Sequence record: JX128257
Direction: 5' to 3' (one strand)
DNA: 64,000 bases
Source: Escherichia phage ECML-4
The notes beneath the pieces were generated by a model. It saw only the letters and a program-made list of their open reading frames with translations. It did not search any database and was not told the DNA's origin. Of this stretch, positions 1-6,114 are shown piece after piece. The position numbers were made by a program, and so were the translations under genes. Position 1 is the first letter of the stretch, and every line of letters begins with the position of its first letter.

Positions 1-718
1 TAGCGCGGCAAACTGTGCCAAGCTGATGATAGATAGCATTACCCACCACCCACAACGGGGCGTCGAACGGCAACATAGCCAATTCGCTATCATTCCCAGT
101 CTTGAATTCTTGGGTGTTCGTAGCCGTTTGGTGGTACAAAACGTCTTGCCCACTGTAATCATCCACGGCAACATTCCAGCCAAGCGCCAGCATTTCAGCC
201 TTGGACTTCTCGAACTCCTTGGAGTAAGATTCGTTGCGCGACCAGCCGGAATCCCCCGCTTCTTTACCAGAGCGTCCACGGATGCGGGCATCGTACTGAT
301 AGCGGTCTGGATATGCAAAGTACAGCAGCGCCAAAGAATCAATCGGATAGTTCTTGAACATCCATTCAGGACGCCACTTGTCCGACAGCATCAGGGGTTC
401 GCCCTCACACACCAGGGTATATCCCTGAGCCAGCCAACCCTTGACGAGGTCGCGAGCAATATCCCCAGAGCCTGTGGCAGCATGAATGGCGTCCATAGAG
501 GTCCAAGACGCCAGGCCGGATTTATTGGACACTGTGTATTGGCCGACGAAGATTAACTTCAGCTCTTCAAATTTCAGGCCGAAGGGGCGCGTCTTATCCC
601 CAACAGTGTACGACAATTCAGTCGGCTTCAGCTTAGTGCGGAGCCACTCGATGAACTGTACGACACGAGTGCCTTTACCCGTGCCGCTGGTTCCTTTGAT
701 TACGATGATCTTTGCCAT
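1..718 (-). CDS. P-loop NTPase / putative nucleotide or DNA-base kinase (3-prime partial, runs off window start)
   Basis: Reverse translation from ATG at 718-716 gives MAKIIVIKGTSGTGKGTRVVQFIEWL... with a Walker A motif (GTSGTGKGT). TAATG overlap with the upstream gene stop. The + strand ORF 26..556 in the track is judged to be its shadow. Confidence 0.5.
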   Translation of the reverse strand, partial: MAKIIVIKGTSGTGKGTRVVQFIEWLRTKLKPTELSYTVGDKTRPFGLKFEELKLIFVGQYTVSNKSGLASWTSMDAIHAATGSGDIARDLVKGWLAQGYTLVCEGEPLMLSDKWRPEWMFKNYPIDSLALLYFAYPDRYQYDARIRGRSGKEAGDSGWSRNESYSKEFEKSKAEMLALGWNVAVDDYSGQDVLYHQTATNTQEFKTGNDSELAMLPFDAPLWVVGNAIYHQLGTVCRA

Positions 719-1023
719 TATGCAGCATCCTCAATGCGCCAACTCACTCCACCCAACCAAGGTGCCCAAAACACGGCAACTTGCGGATGACCATTCTCAA
801 CAAACTTCACTTTATACTGGTCATCAAAGTTATAGAAAATTTCGTCGTCATCAGGTGCCATACCGTTTTCAATCAGAACTCGTTTTAATTCCAACGCTGC
901 GCCAACGGAAGTTGGTGGATTCTGATTACGGATGAAGTTGTTTACATGGATAATGATACCATCCATATCACTGTCACCGGAACGCTTGTCAGGGCTTTCT
1001 ACAACTTTATTTTGTTCTTGCAC
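718..1023 (-). CDS. hypothetical protein (101 aa)
   Basis: Complete ORF tightly packed between two minus-strand genes; no recognisable motif. Confidence 0.45.
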   Translation of the reverse strand: MQEQNKVVESPDKRSGDSDMDGIIIHVNNFIRNQNPPTSVGAALELKRVLIENGMAPDDDEIFYNFDDQYKVKFVENGHPQVAVFWAPWLGGVSWRIEDAA

Positions 1024-1032
1024 GATGTGCTC

Positions 1033-1815
1033 CTATCGGACATATTGATAATGAGAAACCAGGCGATTCACCACTTCATCGAGGTTACGATTTAAGAAGT
1101 CAAAGTGGTTTTGGCCTTCTACATGCTTAATATAAAGCATATCCTCGCAATTCGAAAGATCCAGTTTTTCATAATTGCCCTGAGGGACGAAGATGACGAA
1201 GATGTTATTCAGGGCACACGGCTCAACATACTTCGGATTGTCGTCGATCAGGACATCGCCAGCAAGCAGATGCTTTTCATCCGTGCTCACGAACCCATTA
1301 ATCAACGATTCAAAGTGATGGTATATGAACTGACGCTTGCTGCGTTCGTGTTCCGGTTCGCATTTTGTAACTGCCACCATTTCCACTTGCTCAAACTTCT
1401 GAAGGAGAGCGGCCTTTAAATTCGTAAGGAATTCAACAGCCCCTGGCAGTGGTGACATTCTGGAATACAGATCAGGCATACGCCACCAATCCATCGGATC
1501 ACGTCCTGTTGGCGAATCCATCCACTGACCAGCAACGAATACACGGCGCGTTAACCAGGCCGGATGCGCGCGTTCACGCATGAGGATCGCCAGATCACCA
1601 GCGTGTGACATATAACACTCTTTGGTGATTGGTTGAAATTCAGATGGGTAGTCGTGACATCCCATATTTTCCGCAGCGGCTTTAGAATTAGAAATATTGA
1701 ACCATTCAACCCACGGCGATAGGGAATCAACCAGAGTCAAATCCACATCCACCAGAACGCGATATAACCCGCCAATTTTAGAACATGCGTCATACAGACC
1801 AACGTGATTATTCAT
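1033..1815 (-). CDS. HAD-superfamily phosphatase-like protein
   Basis: ORF 1033..1875 in track; preferred start at 1815 (MNNHVGLYD...) preceded by GGAG. Motif VLVDVDLTLVD matches HAD motif I (DxDxT). Confidence 0.5.
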   Translation of the reverse strand: MNNHVGLYDACSKIGGLYRVLVDVDLTLVDSLSPWVEWFNISNSKAAAENMGCHDYPSEFQPITKECYMSHAGDLAILMRERAHPAWLTRRVFVAGQWMDSPTGRDPMDWWRMPDLYSRMSPLPGAVEFLTNLKAALLQKFEQVEMVAVTKCEPEHERSKRQFIYHHFESLINGFVSTDEKHLLAGDVLIDDNPKYVEPCALNNIFVIFVPQGNYEKLDLSNCEDMLYIKHVEGQNHFDFLNRNLDEVVNRLVSHYQYVR

Positions 1816-2152
1816 CAGATTTCTCCACATTGTCATAACCCGTTGCGGTGCATTGTTCTTCAGTGCAATCGGCATACAGAACCACAGAAGATTCCTTCAC
1901 GTAAGTGGTACAGTGATAGGTTTCATCTTCCTGGATGGAATCATCATAATTGCAAACAGTTTGCAACGGACCAGGAGTGGTGTTGTCCAAAGCTGCATGT
2001 GCCTTGATGGTGTCTTCCATCTTATTCACCGCTTGCTGATTGGTGAACGTCGGCGCATCGAGGTCAACAGTAGACGCAACGTCCAGAAGGGTAGAGCATG
2101 CAGTGGTAGAGAAAGCCAGAGCACACACCAGAAGAATCTTATTGAGTTTCAT
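1808..2152 (-). CDS. small secreted protein / putative lipoprotein
   Basis: Start at 2152 (MKLNKILLVCALAFSTTACS...) with AGGT RBS; N-terminal signal-peptide-like hydrophobic segment ending in Cys. Confidence 0.45.
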   Translation of the reverse strand: MKLNKILLVCALAFSTTACSTLLDVASTVDLDAPTFTNQQAVNKMEDTIKAHAALDNTTPGPLQTVCNYDDSIQEDETYHCTTYVKESSVVLYADCTEEQCTATGYDNVEKSDE

Positions 2153-2212
2153 AACAATACCTGTTGTCAAAGGGATAACAGGGGGAATTATATCCCCCTT
2201 TGTTTTATTGAA

Positions 2213-5209
2213 TCAACCTTTCTTGCCCATCATGGACAACAGATTAACTCGACGTTTGTGAGACCAACCAACCACGTCTAGAATAGACTGAATCGGCTCT
2301 ATGAAGGTCTTTTCAAACGTGGTGTGGTAATCTACCCACTTATCCAGCCCCAACTCCGGAGGGAGGAAGTCAGGGAAGGCTATGCGGTCGTTCCCCACAG
2401 GGTTCCCAGGTTTCAGGTTAATGATTTTAACCTTATCGCCAGATTCTATCGGCGGGAGACCGAGGTCTTCATGCTTGTCTATCAGCTTGTTGTACATAAT
2501 ACAAGCCTTGGCAGCAAAGTGTGTGCCACTGATATAATTTCCGTTGCCGTCTAACCACTTCTCAATATCACTAACGCCAGAGGCTTGAGCAATATCATCC
2601 ACGGTTAATTCCATATATTCCTTCTTATAACCCGCGATCAATTCCTGAACTTCAGCCTCCGTCCCCAGCAGAACTTTCTCATAGCATTTAACCAGACGCT
2701 CACGACACCATTCCGGCGTTGTAGATTTACGCGCTTCCAGACCTTTGAATTTTATCTTTGGCTTCTCATACTTGATGCCTTCGCTATCGTATACTGCCAT
2801 GCAATACATCTTCTTGGCTCGCCATACAGCAGACGATGCGATGACCTCACGTTCCCAGACCATGCGCTGCTCAAACCCGTTCATGGTATTACACAACAAC
2901 TGCGCCCATTCACTGGTTTTTGGCTGGTAATTCTCTTTGATCCATTGGTCAATGTTATCAACGAGTTTGTGATGATCCTTTTCTTCAGGCCACAATTGCT
3001 TGACCAGACGTTCAATGCAAATGTAGTTGGAGTCAGTATCACCCGCGATAACAAAATCCTGACCAGTAGTGCCGCAAAGTTTGTTCAGATAATCATCGGT
3101 GTGGCGTTTGTTCCATTTGTTGATCAGCTGGCCGGAAGTGGTGATTGCTTCAGCGATGTTGATGTTGAAGTATTCTTTAAACCAGACGTTGGAGATTGCG
3201 CCATAACCTGCGTTCATCAAGATCTTCAGACCTTGTTGTAACGTGTCTTGAGCAACCCCCAGATCTTCCCACTTGTGCATGACTTCAGTCAGGTGATCAA
3301 GATCGATGTGCTTGTGTTCTTCATACCATTCAGGATCGTAGAAACGAGACTTCATGGCGGATTCAAGGTGGAAATCACCTTTAGACATTTCCTTACACCA
3401 ACCAGCCCATTGCTCATACTTCAGGCCAGTTGCTTTCTCTCCTTTACGGTCAGCGTATATGCCTCGCATAATTTCGGAAAGGAAGGACATCTTCTCATTA
3501 CTGAAGAACTGAACGTTCGGGGTAAACGAAACGTTATATCGGCGTAGTGTTTCAAAATGGAATTCGCCCAGCGCGACCAATTCATCAACAACTTGTATGC
3601 GTTCATCAATAGCACGCTGCAACTTGTCGTGAAGATTTTTGAGATGACGACGTTTATTCATCGGCGTTGTCATATCATTCATCGCTTTGGTCAATTCCTC
3701 ACACATGGCCTCAATAATATCACGGCGGGTGTGCTTATCAGAAACGATAGTCTCTGGACCAAGGTTGTATTGCTGTATGATGTGGGGATACAGGGAGTTT
3801 AAGTCCTCAGAGAAGACCCAGAAATATATCCCTGGTGCAACCTCCATGACATATGCGCCTTCAAAATCTGTTGGCCCATCATAGACGCGCTGGATTTTCG
3901 GGACAATCCCCTTCTCATAAAGACGATAATAACACATCGCCAGCCACGGCGCTACAGTGCCGAGACCGTCTTCATAGTTGGATTTAGTGCGATAAGCCAA
4001 TACAAACATCAGCTGTATCAAACGCAGTTTTTGTTCTAAGCGCCACACCAGCTTGACGTCTTTGATACCATATCGCGTATGCTTGCAATAATCATTGAAA
4101 TAAAGGTCATACAATGATTTGCTTTCACTATAATCCAACTTCTTCTCACCGAGTTCACAATAAGCGATCCAGTCCAGTGAGTATTTTTCACGGGTGGTGT
4201 AAGTGTGTTTCTTGTACACTTGCATGTAGTCCATCATTGGACAACCCACAAACTGATAAGACGTGACGTCGCCTTTACGGTCTTTGATGAAACGTTTCTT
4301 CAGTTTACCCCAAGGACTGAGACGTTGGGCTTCAGATTCACCAAGAACCTGCGTAATTCGTTCAACCAAATAGGGGCTATCGAACGTTTCAATGTTCCAC
4401 CCAGTCCAACCGTCAAATTGACGCTGCGACCAGTAATCCAAGAAGGCGCGAAGCAGATCTTGTTCCGTCGTATATTCTTTATATTCAACCTCAAGACCGC
4501 CGACTTCTTCATCATTGGGGTCATATTTGAATTTATGGCGATCCTTGGAACACGGCATGCCCCAGACATAGAATTTATTGGTATTCATATCTTGGAGCTG
4601 TATCAGCGTAATAGGGAACGCCGCATTCATGTTCTGTGTGATTTTACCGTTACTGTCAATTATAGGGAATTGGTCAGTCACGTTGTTGGAAATAAAGGAA
4701 CCAGGGAAATGCTCCCGAACGAAATCATGGTTGGCCAGTACTTGCTTATGGAAACGACGAACCCGCGCCTCGCTGCCTTTAAACGTGTGAGATTCAATCG
4801 TTGCGTGTGGGAATGGACCTTTAGTCATTTCTCCGTCACGCCAACCAGCCGAGAACACTTCGATATCCACGTTGGCGATGTGGATATTTGAATAATCAGG
4901 TGTGATCATCCCAGGAAAACTATGGGCGATGAATTGATATGCATAATCCGTTTGTCCATACACCGCAGCCCCTTCGACCTCCTTGTACTCCTCAAGATAG
5001 TTGTCAGCGTCGCGCATTGATGCAAACTTTTTAGACACCAACGGTTCGTTGAGGAGGCCAATCTTTTCAACTTTGGAATAATCAGCTGTGGGTAAATACA
5101 AGGTGGGTTCGAATTTCTTACGCAACATGCGGCGATTGCCGTTGTCGTCTGCGATACGAATCAGAAGGTCGTTACCCTGTCGGGCAACGTTCGTATAGAA
5201 AACAGTCAT
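2213..5209 (-). CDS. DNA polymerase, family B (T4 gp43-like)
   Basis: Motif A DLNSLYPHII and motif C VIAGDTDS present; overall collinear with remembered T4 gp43. Start chosen at ATG 5209 (MTVFYTN) preceded by GGAGACAAACA; track ORF extends to 5311. Confidence 0.93.
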   Translation of the reverse strand: MTVFYTNVARQGNDLLIRIADDNGNRRMLRKKFEPTLYLPTADYSKVEKIGLLNEPLVSKKFASMRDADNYLEEYKEVEGAAVYGQTDYAYQFIAHSFPGMITPDYSNIHIANVDIEVFSAGWRDGEMTKGPFPHATIESHTFKGSEARVRRFHKQVLANHDFVREHFPGSFISNNVTDQFPIIDSNGKITQNMNAAFPITLIQLQDMNTNKFYVWGMPCSKDRHKFKYDPNDEEVGGLEVEYKEYTTEQDLLRAFLDYWSQRQFDGWTGWNIETFDSPYLVERITQVLGESEAQRLSPWGKLKKRFIKDRKGDVTSYQFVGCPMMDYMQVYKKHTYTTREKYSLDWIAYCELGEKKLDYSESKSLYDLYFNDYCKHTRYGIKDVKLVWRLEQKLRLIQLMFVLAYRTKSNYEDGLGTVAPWLAMCYYRLYEKGIVPKIQRVYDGPTDFEGAYVMEVAPGIYFWVFSEDLNSLYPHIIQQYNLGPETIVSDKHTRRDIIEAMCEELTKAMNDMTTPMNKRRHLKNLHDKLQRAIDERIQVVDELVALGEFHFETLRRYNVSFTPNVQFFSNEKMSFLSEIMRGIYADRKGEKATGLKYEQWAGWCKEMSKGDFHLESAMKSRFYDPEWYEEHKHIDLDHLTEVMHKWEDLGVAQDTLQQGLKILMNAGYGAISNVWFKEYFNINIAEAITTSGQLINKWNKRHTDDYLNKLCGTTGQDFVIAGDTDSNYICIERLVKQLWPEEKDHHKLVDNIDQWIKENYQPKTSEWAQLLCNTMNGFEQRMVWEREVIASSAVWRAKKMYCMAVYDSEGIKYEKPKIKFKGLEARKSTTPEWCRERLVKCYEKVLLGTEAEVQELIAGYKKEYMELTVDDIAQASGVSDIEKWLDGNGNYISGTHFAAKACIMYNKLIDKHEDLGLPPIESGDKVKIINLKPGNPVGNDRIAFPDFLPPELGLDKWVDYHTTFEKTFIEPIQSILDVVGWSHKRRVNLLSMMGKKG

Positions 5210-5270
5210 TGTTTGTCTCCGGTTAACCGTGCCGTCAGCACGTCCCCGTAATTTAACCGAGGAACGTTCA

Positions 5271-5861
5271 ATGACCAAGGAGTTTAAAATGGCAATCCCC
5301 TTTGTGAGCATGATTCCAGGGGCGCTAAAGCAACTCTGGAATCTTGGGACTGATTTGGTGCAATATAAGCGGGAAATTGTTCAGGCTAAACACGATGTTA
5401 AACTGGAGGCAATAAAGTCTTCTTCAGAATGGGAACTTTCTAAGATTACCGAAGTCGGCGGATCTTGGAAAGATGAATTCTGGACAATCGTTTTGGCTGT
5501 TCCCGCTATCCTTGTTATGATCGCTCCGGTTGTGGAACTTCTAATGTTCCCCACCGAGTATCATAAAGGGGATTTCATCAAAGCAGTAATTGATGGTATG
5601 CAAGCCCTTGAAACAGCGCCTGATTGGTATACTGCTTCGCTATTGACAGCAATTAGTGCATCATTCGGTATCAAGGGGTACAACCATTACAAAAGCAATA
5701 GCCGGAAGGCGCAAGCTGTGGATGCTCTCAAACAGTTTGGGGTCAAAGTGGTTAACAAAGATCCCACTGTTGTTACTCAGTCGGGTTCTCCCGATCTTGA
5801 GTCTGCTCCCCCAGCTGGGTCTACTGCGACCTCTGGTGCGTGGCCTGATCTGAAGAAATAA
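5271..5861 (+). CDS. putative membrane protein
   Basis: Start ATG 5271 after GAGGAACG RBS; hydrophobic segment FWTIVLAVPAILVMIAPVVELLMF; divergent from the polymerase gene. Confidence 0.5.
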   Translation: MTKEFKMAIPFVSMIPGALKQLWNLGTDLVQYKREIVQAKHDVKLEAIKSSSEWELSKITEVGGSWKDEFWTIVLAVPAILVMIAPVVELLMFPTEYHKGDFIKAVIDGMQALETAPDWYTASLLTAISASFGIKGYNHYKSNSRKAQAVDALKQFGVKVVNKDPTVVTQSGSPDLESAPPAGSTATSGAWPDLKK

Positions 5862-5865
5862 GTTC

Positions 5866-5891
5866 AAGGGGAGGAAACTCCCCTTCTTTTG
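5866..5891 (+). terminator. rho-independent terminator-like hairpin
   Basis: AAGGGGAG-GAAA-CTCCCCTT followed by CTTTTGG, directly after the stop of 5271..5861. Confidence 0.55.
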
Positions 5892-5901
5892 GTGTTAGGG
5901 A

Positions 5902-6114
5902 ATGAAAGTGGTAAACAAGAGATTGCTCGTCACCCAAGGCGGGGCGACGATAGTACGTGGACGGATATATGAACAAACCAAGCTGGGTGATCATAAGACT
6001 CGTCTGACGGTTAAAGCCCCCGACGGCGGTTGGCCAACAAAGGTGATTGTCCCAGACGGCCTCATAGAACGAGGGACGGCGACGTATAAGGGTGCAGAGT
6101 TCAAAATTTATTAA
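5902..6114 (+). CDS. hypothetical protein (70 aa)
   Basis: ORF from track; weak RBS spacing, so existence and start are uncertain. Confidence 0.3.
   Translation: MKVVNKRLLVTQGGATIVRGRIYEQTKLGDHKTRLTVKAPDGGWPTKVIVPDGLIERGTATYKGAEFKIY

Follow-up and report, generated by a model that had tools for sequence, protein, structure and literature searches.

The left end of the window, by which is meant the whole 64,000-nucleotide stretch of Escherichia phage ECML-4 DNA that was analysed (sequence record JX128257), very probably carries a conserved gene block of ViI-like Ackermannviridae, made up, in this order, of genes for a DNA polymerase, a lipoprotein, an NT5C-type phosphatase of the HAD superfamily, a DUF7254 protein and a 5-hydroxymethyl-dU (5-hmdU) DNA kinase. 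This gene block has already been described, its kinase has been characterised experimentally elsewhere, and the analysis brings nothing new on the thymine hypermodification route; the substrate of the phosphatase is the sole modest point of value beyond the known block. Window positions 1-5.4 kb showed 99.0-99.7% nucleotide identity to the Salmonella phages FSL SP-029, Vi01 (ViI), Marshall and their relatives, and the source of the window belongs to the genus Kuttervirus (ViI-like), family Ackermannviridae. The features are listed below.

1..718, minus strand: 5-hydroxymethyl-dU DNA kinase 2 (ViI gp243 / Vi01_196), represented in the window by its N-terminal 239 codons out of 304.
718..1023, minus strand: DUF7254 protein, 101 aa, its stop codon overlapping the kinase start codon.
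1033..1815, minus strand: predicted HAD-superfamily phosphatase, NT5C type, 260 aa (Vi01_194), with motif I DVDLT.
1808..2152, minus strand: small predicted lipoprotein DUF7292, 114 aa (Vi01_193), with signal peptide, lipobox and Cys19.
2180..2216, minus strand: intergenic hairpin element between the polymerase and lipoprotein genes, from a scan for promoter-like sites and hairpins.
2213..5209 (ORF to 5311), minus strand: family B (T4 gp43-like) DNA polymerase, as annotated in Vi01 and relatives.
8529..9722, minus strand: PLP-dependent decarboxylase (ViI gp226), with 97% identity to Vi01 gp226.
63238..64000, plus strand: aGPT-Pplase clade 1 paralogue (ViI gp160), running off the window at its right edge.

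The original prediction placed a kinase-like gene, a HAD-motif gene and a signal-peptide gene downstream of the polymerase on the same strand, the first of them cut by the window edge. All of these were present on the minus strand, in the order lipoprotein DUF7292, HAD phosphatase, DUF7254 and P-loop kinase after the polymerase, and the kinase gene is indeed truncated at the edge. Each gene of the block matched a Pfam or PHROG family, with E values from 1e-47 to 1e-174, and each is conserved across hundreds of phage records; because of these strong family matches and this wide conservation, the genes can be taken as real and not as chance open reading frames. Compared with Vi01, there is 100% identity in the kinase part, in the HAD protein and in the lipoprotein, DUF7254 has one difference, and the polymerase is identical at 988 of 999 aligned positions (998 residues and the stop). 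Furthermore, the order polymerase, DUF7292, HAD, DUF7254, a GIY-YIG insert, HMUD2 and, farther on, ADDT was kept at ~45% protein identity in a comparison that covered a metagenome contig, Serratia phage 3M and Erwinia phage phiEa2809. The intergenic element is a G+C-rich hairpin with the loop TATAAT, preceded by TTGATTCAATAAAAC, and the promoter-like site within the element scored 10 of 12 matches. A hairpin occupies the same position in five distant relatives, in which the stem sequences differ. When positions 1-6000 of the window were scanned for RNA families and repeats, none were found.

The kinase is ViI gp243, the ATP-dependent 5-hmdU DNA kinase that carries out the first post-replicative step to 5-(2-aminoethoxy)methyl-dU. 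The window encodes 239 residues of the kinase, all of which agree with Vi01 YP_004327565 (carrying the note orf00243), and because of this identity to ViI gp243, whose activity has been published, the gene is a known and characterised one. The Walker A motif GTSGTGKGT occupies residues 9-17 (nucleotides 668-694). The family search was run on the full-length Vi01 orthologue, in which residues 1-303 matched model positions 1-298 of Pfam PF18747, HMUD2 ('5-hmdU DNA kinase 2'), with an E value of 5.6e-169 and 561 bits against a cut-off of 25; the hydroxymethyl-pyrimidine DNA kinases were among the families to which the original prediction had pointed. HMUD2 alone matched the kinase when Pfam was searched at E values up to 1, and a search of PDB sequences found no relative with a solved structure. 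The motifs KG[TP]SGxGKGTRV and TLVCEGEP, the latter Walker B-like, are kept in four homologues with 41-57% identity, and the GRSGK motif is likewise kept down to 41% identity. Conservation in homologues was the point on which the Walker A motif of the kinase and the DxDxT motif of the HAD protein had been expected to stand or fall, and both are conserved.

Two other labels attached to this gene were considered and rejected. The 'guanylate kinase' label of RefSeq and PHROG had no such match in Pfam or NCBIfam at E values up to 1, and it is only the name of phrog_4409. The 'homing endonuclease' label stems from GIY-YIG genes that are inserted or fused upstream in relatives.

The activity of the kinase is established in the literature. 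Lee et al. (PNAS 2018, PMC5889632) refer to ViI gp243 as 'Kinase2' and showed that lysates containing gp67, gp160, gp226, gp243 and gp247 turn 5-hmdU DNA into 5-(2-aminoethoxy)methyl-dU (5-NeOmdU), a base that takes the place of ~40% of T in ViI-like DNA. In a later study by Lee et al. (NAR, PMC8989533), ViI gp243 acting in vitro on 5-hmdU DNA gave the 418 u nucleotide 5-phosphomethyl-dU (5-PmdU), gp247 transferred serine onto 5-PmdU with replacement of the phosphate, and gp226 then decarboxylated the product. In the phage, gp243 phosphorylates the 5-hydroxymethyl group of 5-hmdU that is already part of the DNA, with ATP as donor of the gamma-phosphate, and the exchange of phosphate for serine by gp247 and the decarboxylation by gp226 then yield a base that blocks restriction. 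The kinase thus opens a well-described route of thymine decoration by which phages escape restriction enzymes. It co-occurs with the ADDT protein gp247, the PLP protein gp226 and gp160, and in Vi01 a thyA-like gene adjoins gp67. The gp226 of the window scored 31.1 bits with Pfam PALP (E 2e-7), below the cut-off of 35; gp160 matched Pfam PF18723 with an E value of 2.7e-40, with orf00160 at the matching position in Vi01; and gp247 (Pfam ADDT) lies ~0.7-2 kb past the left window edge.

The HAD protein is, on the agreement of sequence, motifs and modelled fold, a predicted capped small-molecule phosphatase of the 5'(3')-deoxyribonucleotidase family, and it most likely hydrolyses deoxynucleoside monophosphates. 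It matched Pfam NT5C (PF06941) with 33.3 bits against a cut-off of 24.8, over model positions 56-143 of 180 only, and its homologue in the Vequintavirinae spans NT5C model positions 4-158. A weak TROVE match was also seen in Pfam at E values up to 1, and phrog_420, which PHROG names 'unknown function', matched strongly. A profile built from 23 homologues found human mitochondrial 5'(3')-deoxyribonucleotidase (mdN) with an E value of 7e-5. In this alignment motif I pairs RVLVDVDLTLVD with RVLVDMDGVLAD, and motifs II to IV also align.

Conservation was evaluated in 23 close and 6 distant homologues, including homologues with 28-29% identity from Vibrio phages and one Vequintavirinae phage. The invariant residues were D23, D25, T27, [ST]150, C152, H156, S159, K160, K181, D191 and D192. 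Motif I, DVDLT, comprises residues 23-27 (nucleotides 1735-1749); [ST]150 corresponds to motif II, the motif III lysine is K160 or K181, and D191 and D192 form motif IV. The structural model showed a Rossmann-like HAD core with a helical C1 cap. Its best fold matches were two NT5C enzymes of solved structure, with 164 of the 168 residues of 3bwv aligned, cap included. The protein would thus be a Mg-dependent capped phosphatase with Asp23 as the nucleophile, acting on free deoxynucleoside monophosphates. Literature searches on an Ackermannviridae nucleotidase returned nothing specific, and a phosphatase assay of the HAD protein was not found in them.

The possibility was considered that the kinase and the HAD protein form an end-healing pair, one phosphorylating 5'-OH ends and the other removing 3'-phosphates in the repair of nicked DNA or tRNA. 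T4 Pnkp joins a P-loop kinase with a DxDxT phosphatase, and in the window a distance of 315 nt separates the two genes, which share a strand; the resemblance is at the level of motifs only. However, neither protein matched a PNK family in Pfam at E values up to 1, so that this part of the original prediction failed. The kinase is a published 5-hmdU DNA kinase whose HMUD2 match is full-length and stands alone in Pfam, and the HAD protein matched NT5C and no polynucleotide 3'-phosphatase family. Moreover, its large cap domain is typical of small-molecule HAD enzymes, and the gene occurs without the kinase in Vibrio phage BX-1 and in the Vequintavirinae. An end-healing pair is therefore exceedingly improbable. 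Among the functions that had been offered for the two enzymes, base modification holds for the kinase (HMUD2/gp243) and nucleotide metabolism for the HAD protein (NT5C); DNA-end metabolism does not, there being no PNK match.

The two enzymes had also been proposed as a functional kinase and phosphatase pair. In BX-1 (Vapseptimavirus, Ackermannviridae) the polymerase and HAD genes stay adjacent, yet gp243, gp67, gp247, gp160, gp226 and the ViI thyA-like gene were not found by tblastn at E values of 0.01 or less. An obligate coupling of the phosphatase to the kinase is thus ruled out by BX-1, and the pairing did not hold. In Vibrio phage K485 the order is polymerase, HAD, HNH, kinase and ADDT, with neither the lipoprotein nor DUF7254. 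The HAD homologue of the Vequintavirinae lies near ThyX and ribonucleotide reductase. Since BX-1 keeps the HAD gene without detectable hmdU genes, the HAD family predates the hmdU pathway and does not need it. Together, the contexts in BX-1 and in the Vequintavirinae place the predicted phosphatase in a replication and nucleotide-pool module and not as a functional partner of the kinase.

Within such a module, the job most coherent in this phage would be the removal of dTMP, perhaps also of dUMP. Vi01 carries a dCMP deaminase, the thyA-like gene next to gp67, dnk and NTP pyrophosphatases, and no second annotated nucleotidase was seen in the Vi01 regions examined. Removal of dTMP would complement the NTP pyrophosphatases, the dCMP deaminase, the dUMP hydroxymethylase and the dNMP kinase, with 5-hmdUTP, not dTTP, feeding the polymerase. 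According to the literature (as cited in PMC8989533), the activities by which hmdU phages deplete thymidine nucleotides include a phage dTMPase. It is plausible, though less likely than not, that the dTMPase step of the hmdU pathway is carried out by the HAD protein. This specific reading is weakened because the HAD family does not need the pathway. If the protein were a dTMP-selective nucleotidase, the dTMPase step of the hmdU pathway would gain a gene in these phages.

A more general role deserves serious consideration, even if its probability falls short of even: the HAD protein may be a phosphatase of deoxynucleoside monophosphates or non-canonical nucleotides that serves pool balancing or house-cleaning, with no special link to thymine replacement. 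BX-1, in which the gene adjoins the polymerase, is annotated with thymidylate synthase and dihydrofolate reductase and had no detected hypermodification gene, and homologues occur in Vequintavirinae, Pectobacterium, Cronobacter and Aeromonas phages, in which the HMUD2 kinase search gave few or no matches. Against a role of this kind, no other candidate for the described dTMPase activity of the hmdU pathway was seen in ViI-type phages, and in kinase-bearing Ackermannviridae the HAD and kinase genes are separated by no more than ~1-2 kb even where identity falls to roughly 30-40%.

It was also considered that the HAD protein could act on DNA itself, stripping the phosphate from 5-phosphomethyl-dU and so reversing the kinase, which would set the ~40% level or the site pattern of the modification. 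The kinase gene is nearby, the modification is partial, and the literature states that the origin of the unmodified T in such phages is unexplained. If true, this would amount to a kinase/phosphatase switch on a DNA base. However, the modelled capped NT5C fold would enclose a site the size of a mononucleotide, and a cap is typically missing from HAD enzymes with macromolecular substrates. Furthermore, orthologues occur in phages without any 5-hmdU kinase, and the five-protein reconstitution of the pathway worked without the HAD protein. An action on DNA is very unlikely. The same low probability is given to the version in which the HAD protein, perhaps with DUF7254, resets sites phosphorylated by gp243 or gp67 after replication and thereby tunes the level and the site pattern.

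Between the HAD and kinase genes lies DUF7254 (718-1023), a gene that had been left out of the original prediction. Its stop codon overlaps the kinase ATG in the sequence TAATG. The C-terminal half of the protein is invariant, and the structural model, which is confident (pLDDT 80), has two helices packed on an antiparallel sheet. The 'thioredoxin' label given to this 101-aa protein in some records was rejected, as the protein is without cysteine and the fold disagrees. Both DUF7254 and the DUF7292 lipoprotein are orphans limited to this phage family, a family that serves in the biocontrol of Salmonella and E. coli O157.

The protein that had been predicted to be secreted has a signal peptide and a lipobox, in agreement with that prediction. 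It begins MKLNKILLVCALAFSTTAC, and its predicted signal is MKLNKILLVCALAFSTTA directly before the cysteine, with a basic N terminus and a hydrophobic stretch followed by the lipobox. Cys19 of the lipobox was invariant in 23 sequences, the preceding position being A or G. The invariant cysteines among the 23 homologues were C19, C67, C81, C96 and C101, the last four of which are in the mature part. By the usual rule, Ser at +2 of a lipoprotein directs outer-membrane sorting, and the Ser at +2 in this protein suggests the same destination. The protein may be exported and held on the periplasmic side by a lipid anchor at Cys19, with disulfide bonds. It matched Pfam PF23964 (DUF7292) with an E value of 1.6e-53 and phrog_3748, and no other family; a profile search of PDB sequences and a search with the PADLOC models gave no match. 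The gene was not found in the Vibrio relatives, and a literature search on an Ackermannviridae lipoprotein returned nothing specific.

The lipoprotein had been compared with the immunity proteins of T4 on the basis of its location. T4 imm sits between genes 42 and 43, and the comparison stands as far as position is concerned. It does not extend further: the lipoprotein belongs to an orphan family for which no match to an immunity family was seen, and T4 Imm is not a lipoprotein but an integral membrane protein. Assignment as an immunity protein of the T4 Imm/Sp type was rejected, since only DUF7292 and phrog_3748 matched and PADLOC and PDB gave nothing. The lipoprotein would probably alter the envelope of the infected cell, for example through a superinfection block, although an exclusion role is a guess.

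The block can be set beside known systems gene by gene. The window kinase has the same sequence over 239 residues, the same position and the same neighbours, ADDT transferase and PLP decarboxylase, as ViI gp243, and differs in being truncated at the edge. The gp243 protein is a paralogue of gp67 and a homologue of M6 gp54, PhiW-14 gp37 and SP10 gp186/gp218. Identity between the HAD protein and the NT5C enzymes (human mdN and cdN, and Staphylococcus epidermidis 3bwv) is only 19-22%. The phage protein is ~60-80 residues longer than these enzymes, with a C-terminal helical extension and, in the cap, an additional beta-hairpin (residues 89-102) that varies between homologues. The lipoprotein shares with T5 Llp, phi80 Cor and T4 Imm/Sp the character of a small exported protein of the early region, without detectable sequence similarity. 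T5 Llp is a lipoprotein with disulfide-forming cysteines, and the same is predicted for the ViI-like protein. For the dTMP 5'-nucleotidase (dTMPase) of the hmU-containing Bacillus phages, a gene assignment was not found in the literature searched; the activity, as cited in PMC8989533, comes from enzyme studies of infected cells. By removing dTMP, the HAD protein may fill the same slot in the pathway as this Bacillus phage enzyme.

Two G+C-rich intergenic hairpins were found in the window, one of them next to gp160, a member of aGPT-Pplase clade 1:

2180-2216, minus strand, hairpin 3' of the polymerase stop codon
62305-63168, plus strand, gene annotated as a MazG-like pyrophosphatase in Vi01, directly upstream of gp160
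63191-63215, plus strand, hairpin immediately upstream of gp160
63238-64000, plus strand, gp160, cut by the window end

The loop of both hairpins reads TATAAT(T/G), and each hairpin is preceded by TTCA(A/T)TAAA(A)C. The position of the hairpin that follows the polymerase gene is conserved in five distant Ackermannviridae, with stems that differ in sequence; in the Vibrio phages, a T-run follows the hairpin at this position. The TATAAT-loop hairpin may act as both terminator and promoter. A search of Pfam with the product of the MazG-like-labelled gene found no match; the gene is a candidate for a dTTPase or dUTPase of the hypermodification pathway.

The HAD gene also occurs directly after the polymerase gene in Vibrio phage BX-1 (OK428602.1, Ackermannviridae; comparison locus L006, 4827-5501). 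Homologues of the ViI hypermodification genes gp67, gp160, gp226, gp243, gp247 and the thyA-like gene were looked for in BX-1 and none was detectable. Thymidylate synthase and DHFR are annotated in its genome, and the thymine of BX-1 is probably unmodified.

Several public annotations of this gene set in the comparison loci are misleading. Records call the kinase gp243 "guanylate kinase" or "homing endonuclease" (L001, 5804-6718), gp67 "terminase small subunit" (L010, 38203-38865) and DUF7254 "putative thioredoxin" (L002, 6718-7023). Homing endonuclease genes have inserted into the interval that separates the kinase gene from HAD or DUF7254:

L005, 8089-8769, GIY-YIG homing endonuclease gene in a metagenome relative
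L009, 5460-6014, HNH homing endonuclease gene in Vibrio phage K485

The intergenic spot 5' of the kinase gene, after HAD/DUF7254, seems to be a recurring site of insertion.

The window was also compared with Vi01 at the PLP-dependent decarboxylase:

8529-9722, minus strand, gp226, 97% identical to the Vi01 protein

The N-terminus of this ORF is 27 codons shorter than that of the Vi01 protein, and GSKLRQ, which surrounds the proposed PLP lysine, is conserved. Furthermore, the genes at the window's right end are offset by approximately 1.3 kb from their positions in Vi01 (compared region about 11000-59000), indicating that the window phage carries extra sequence relative to Vi01 somewhere within the structural-gene region.
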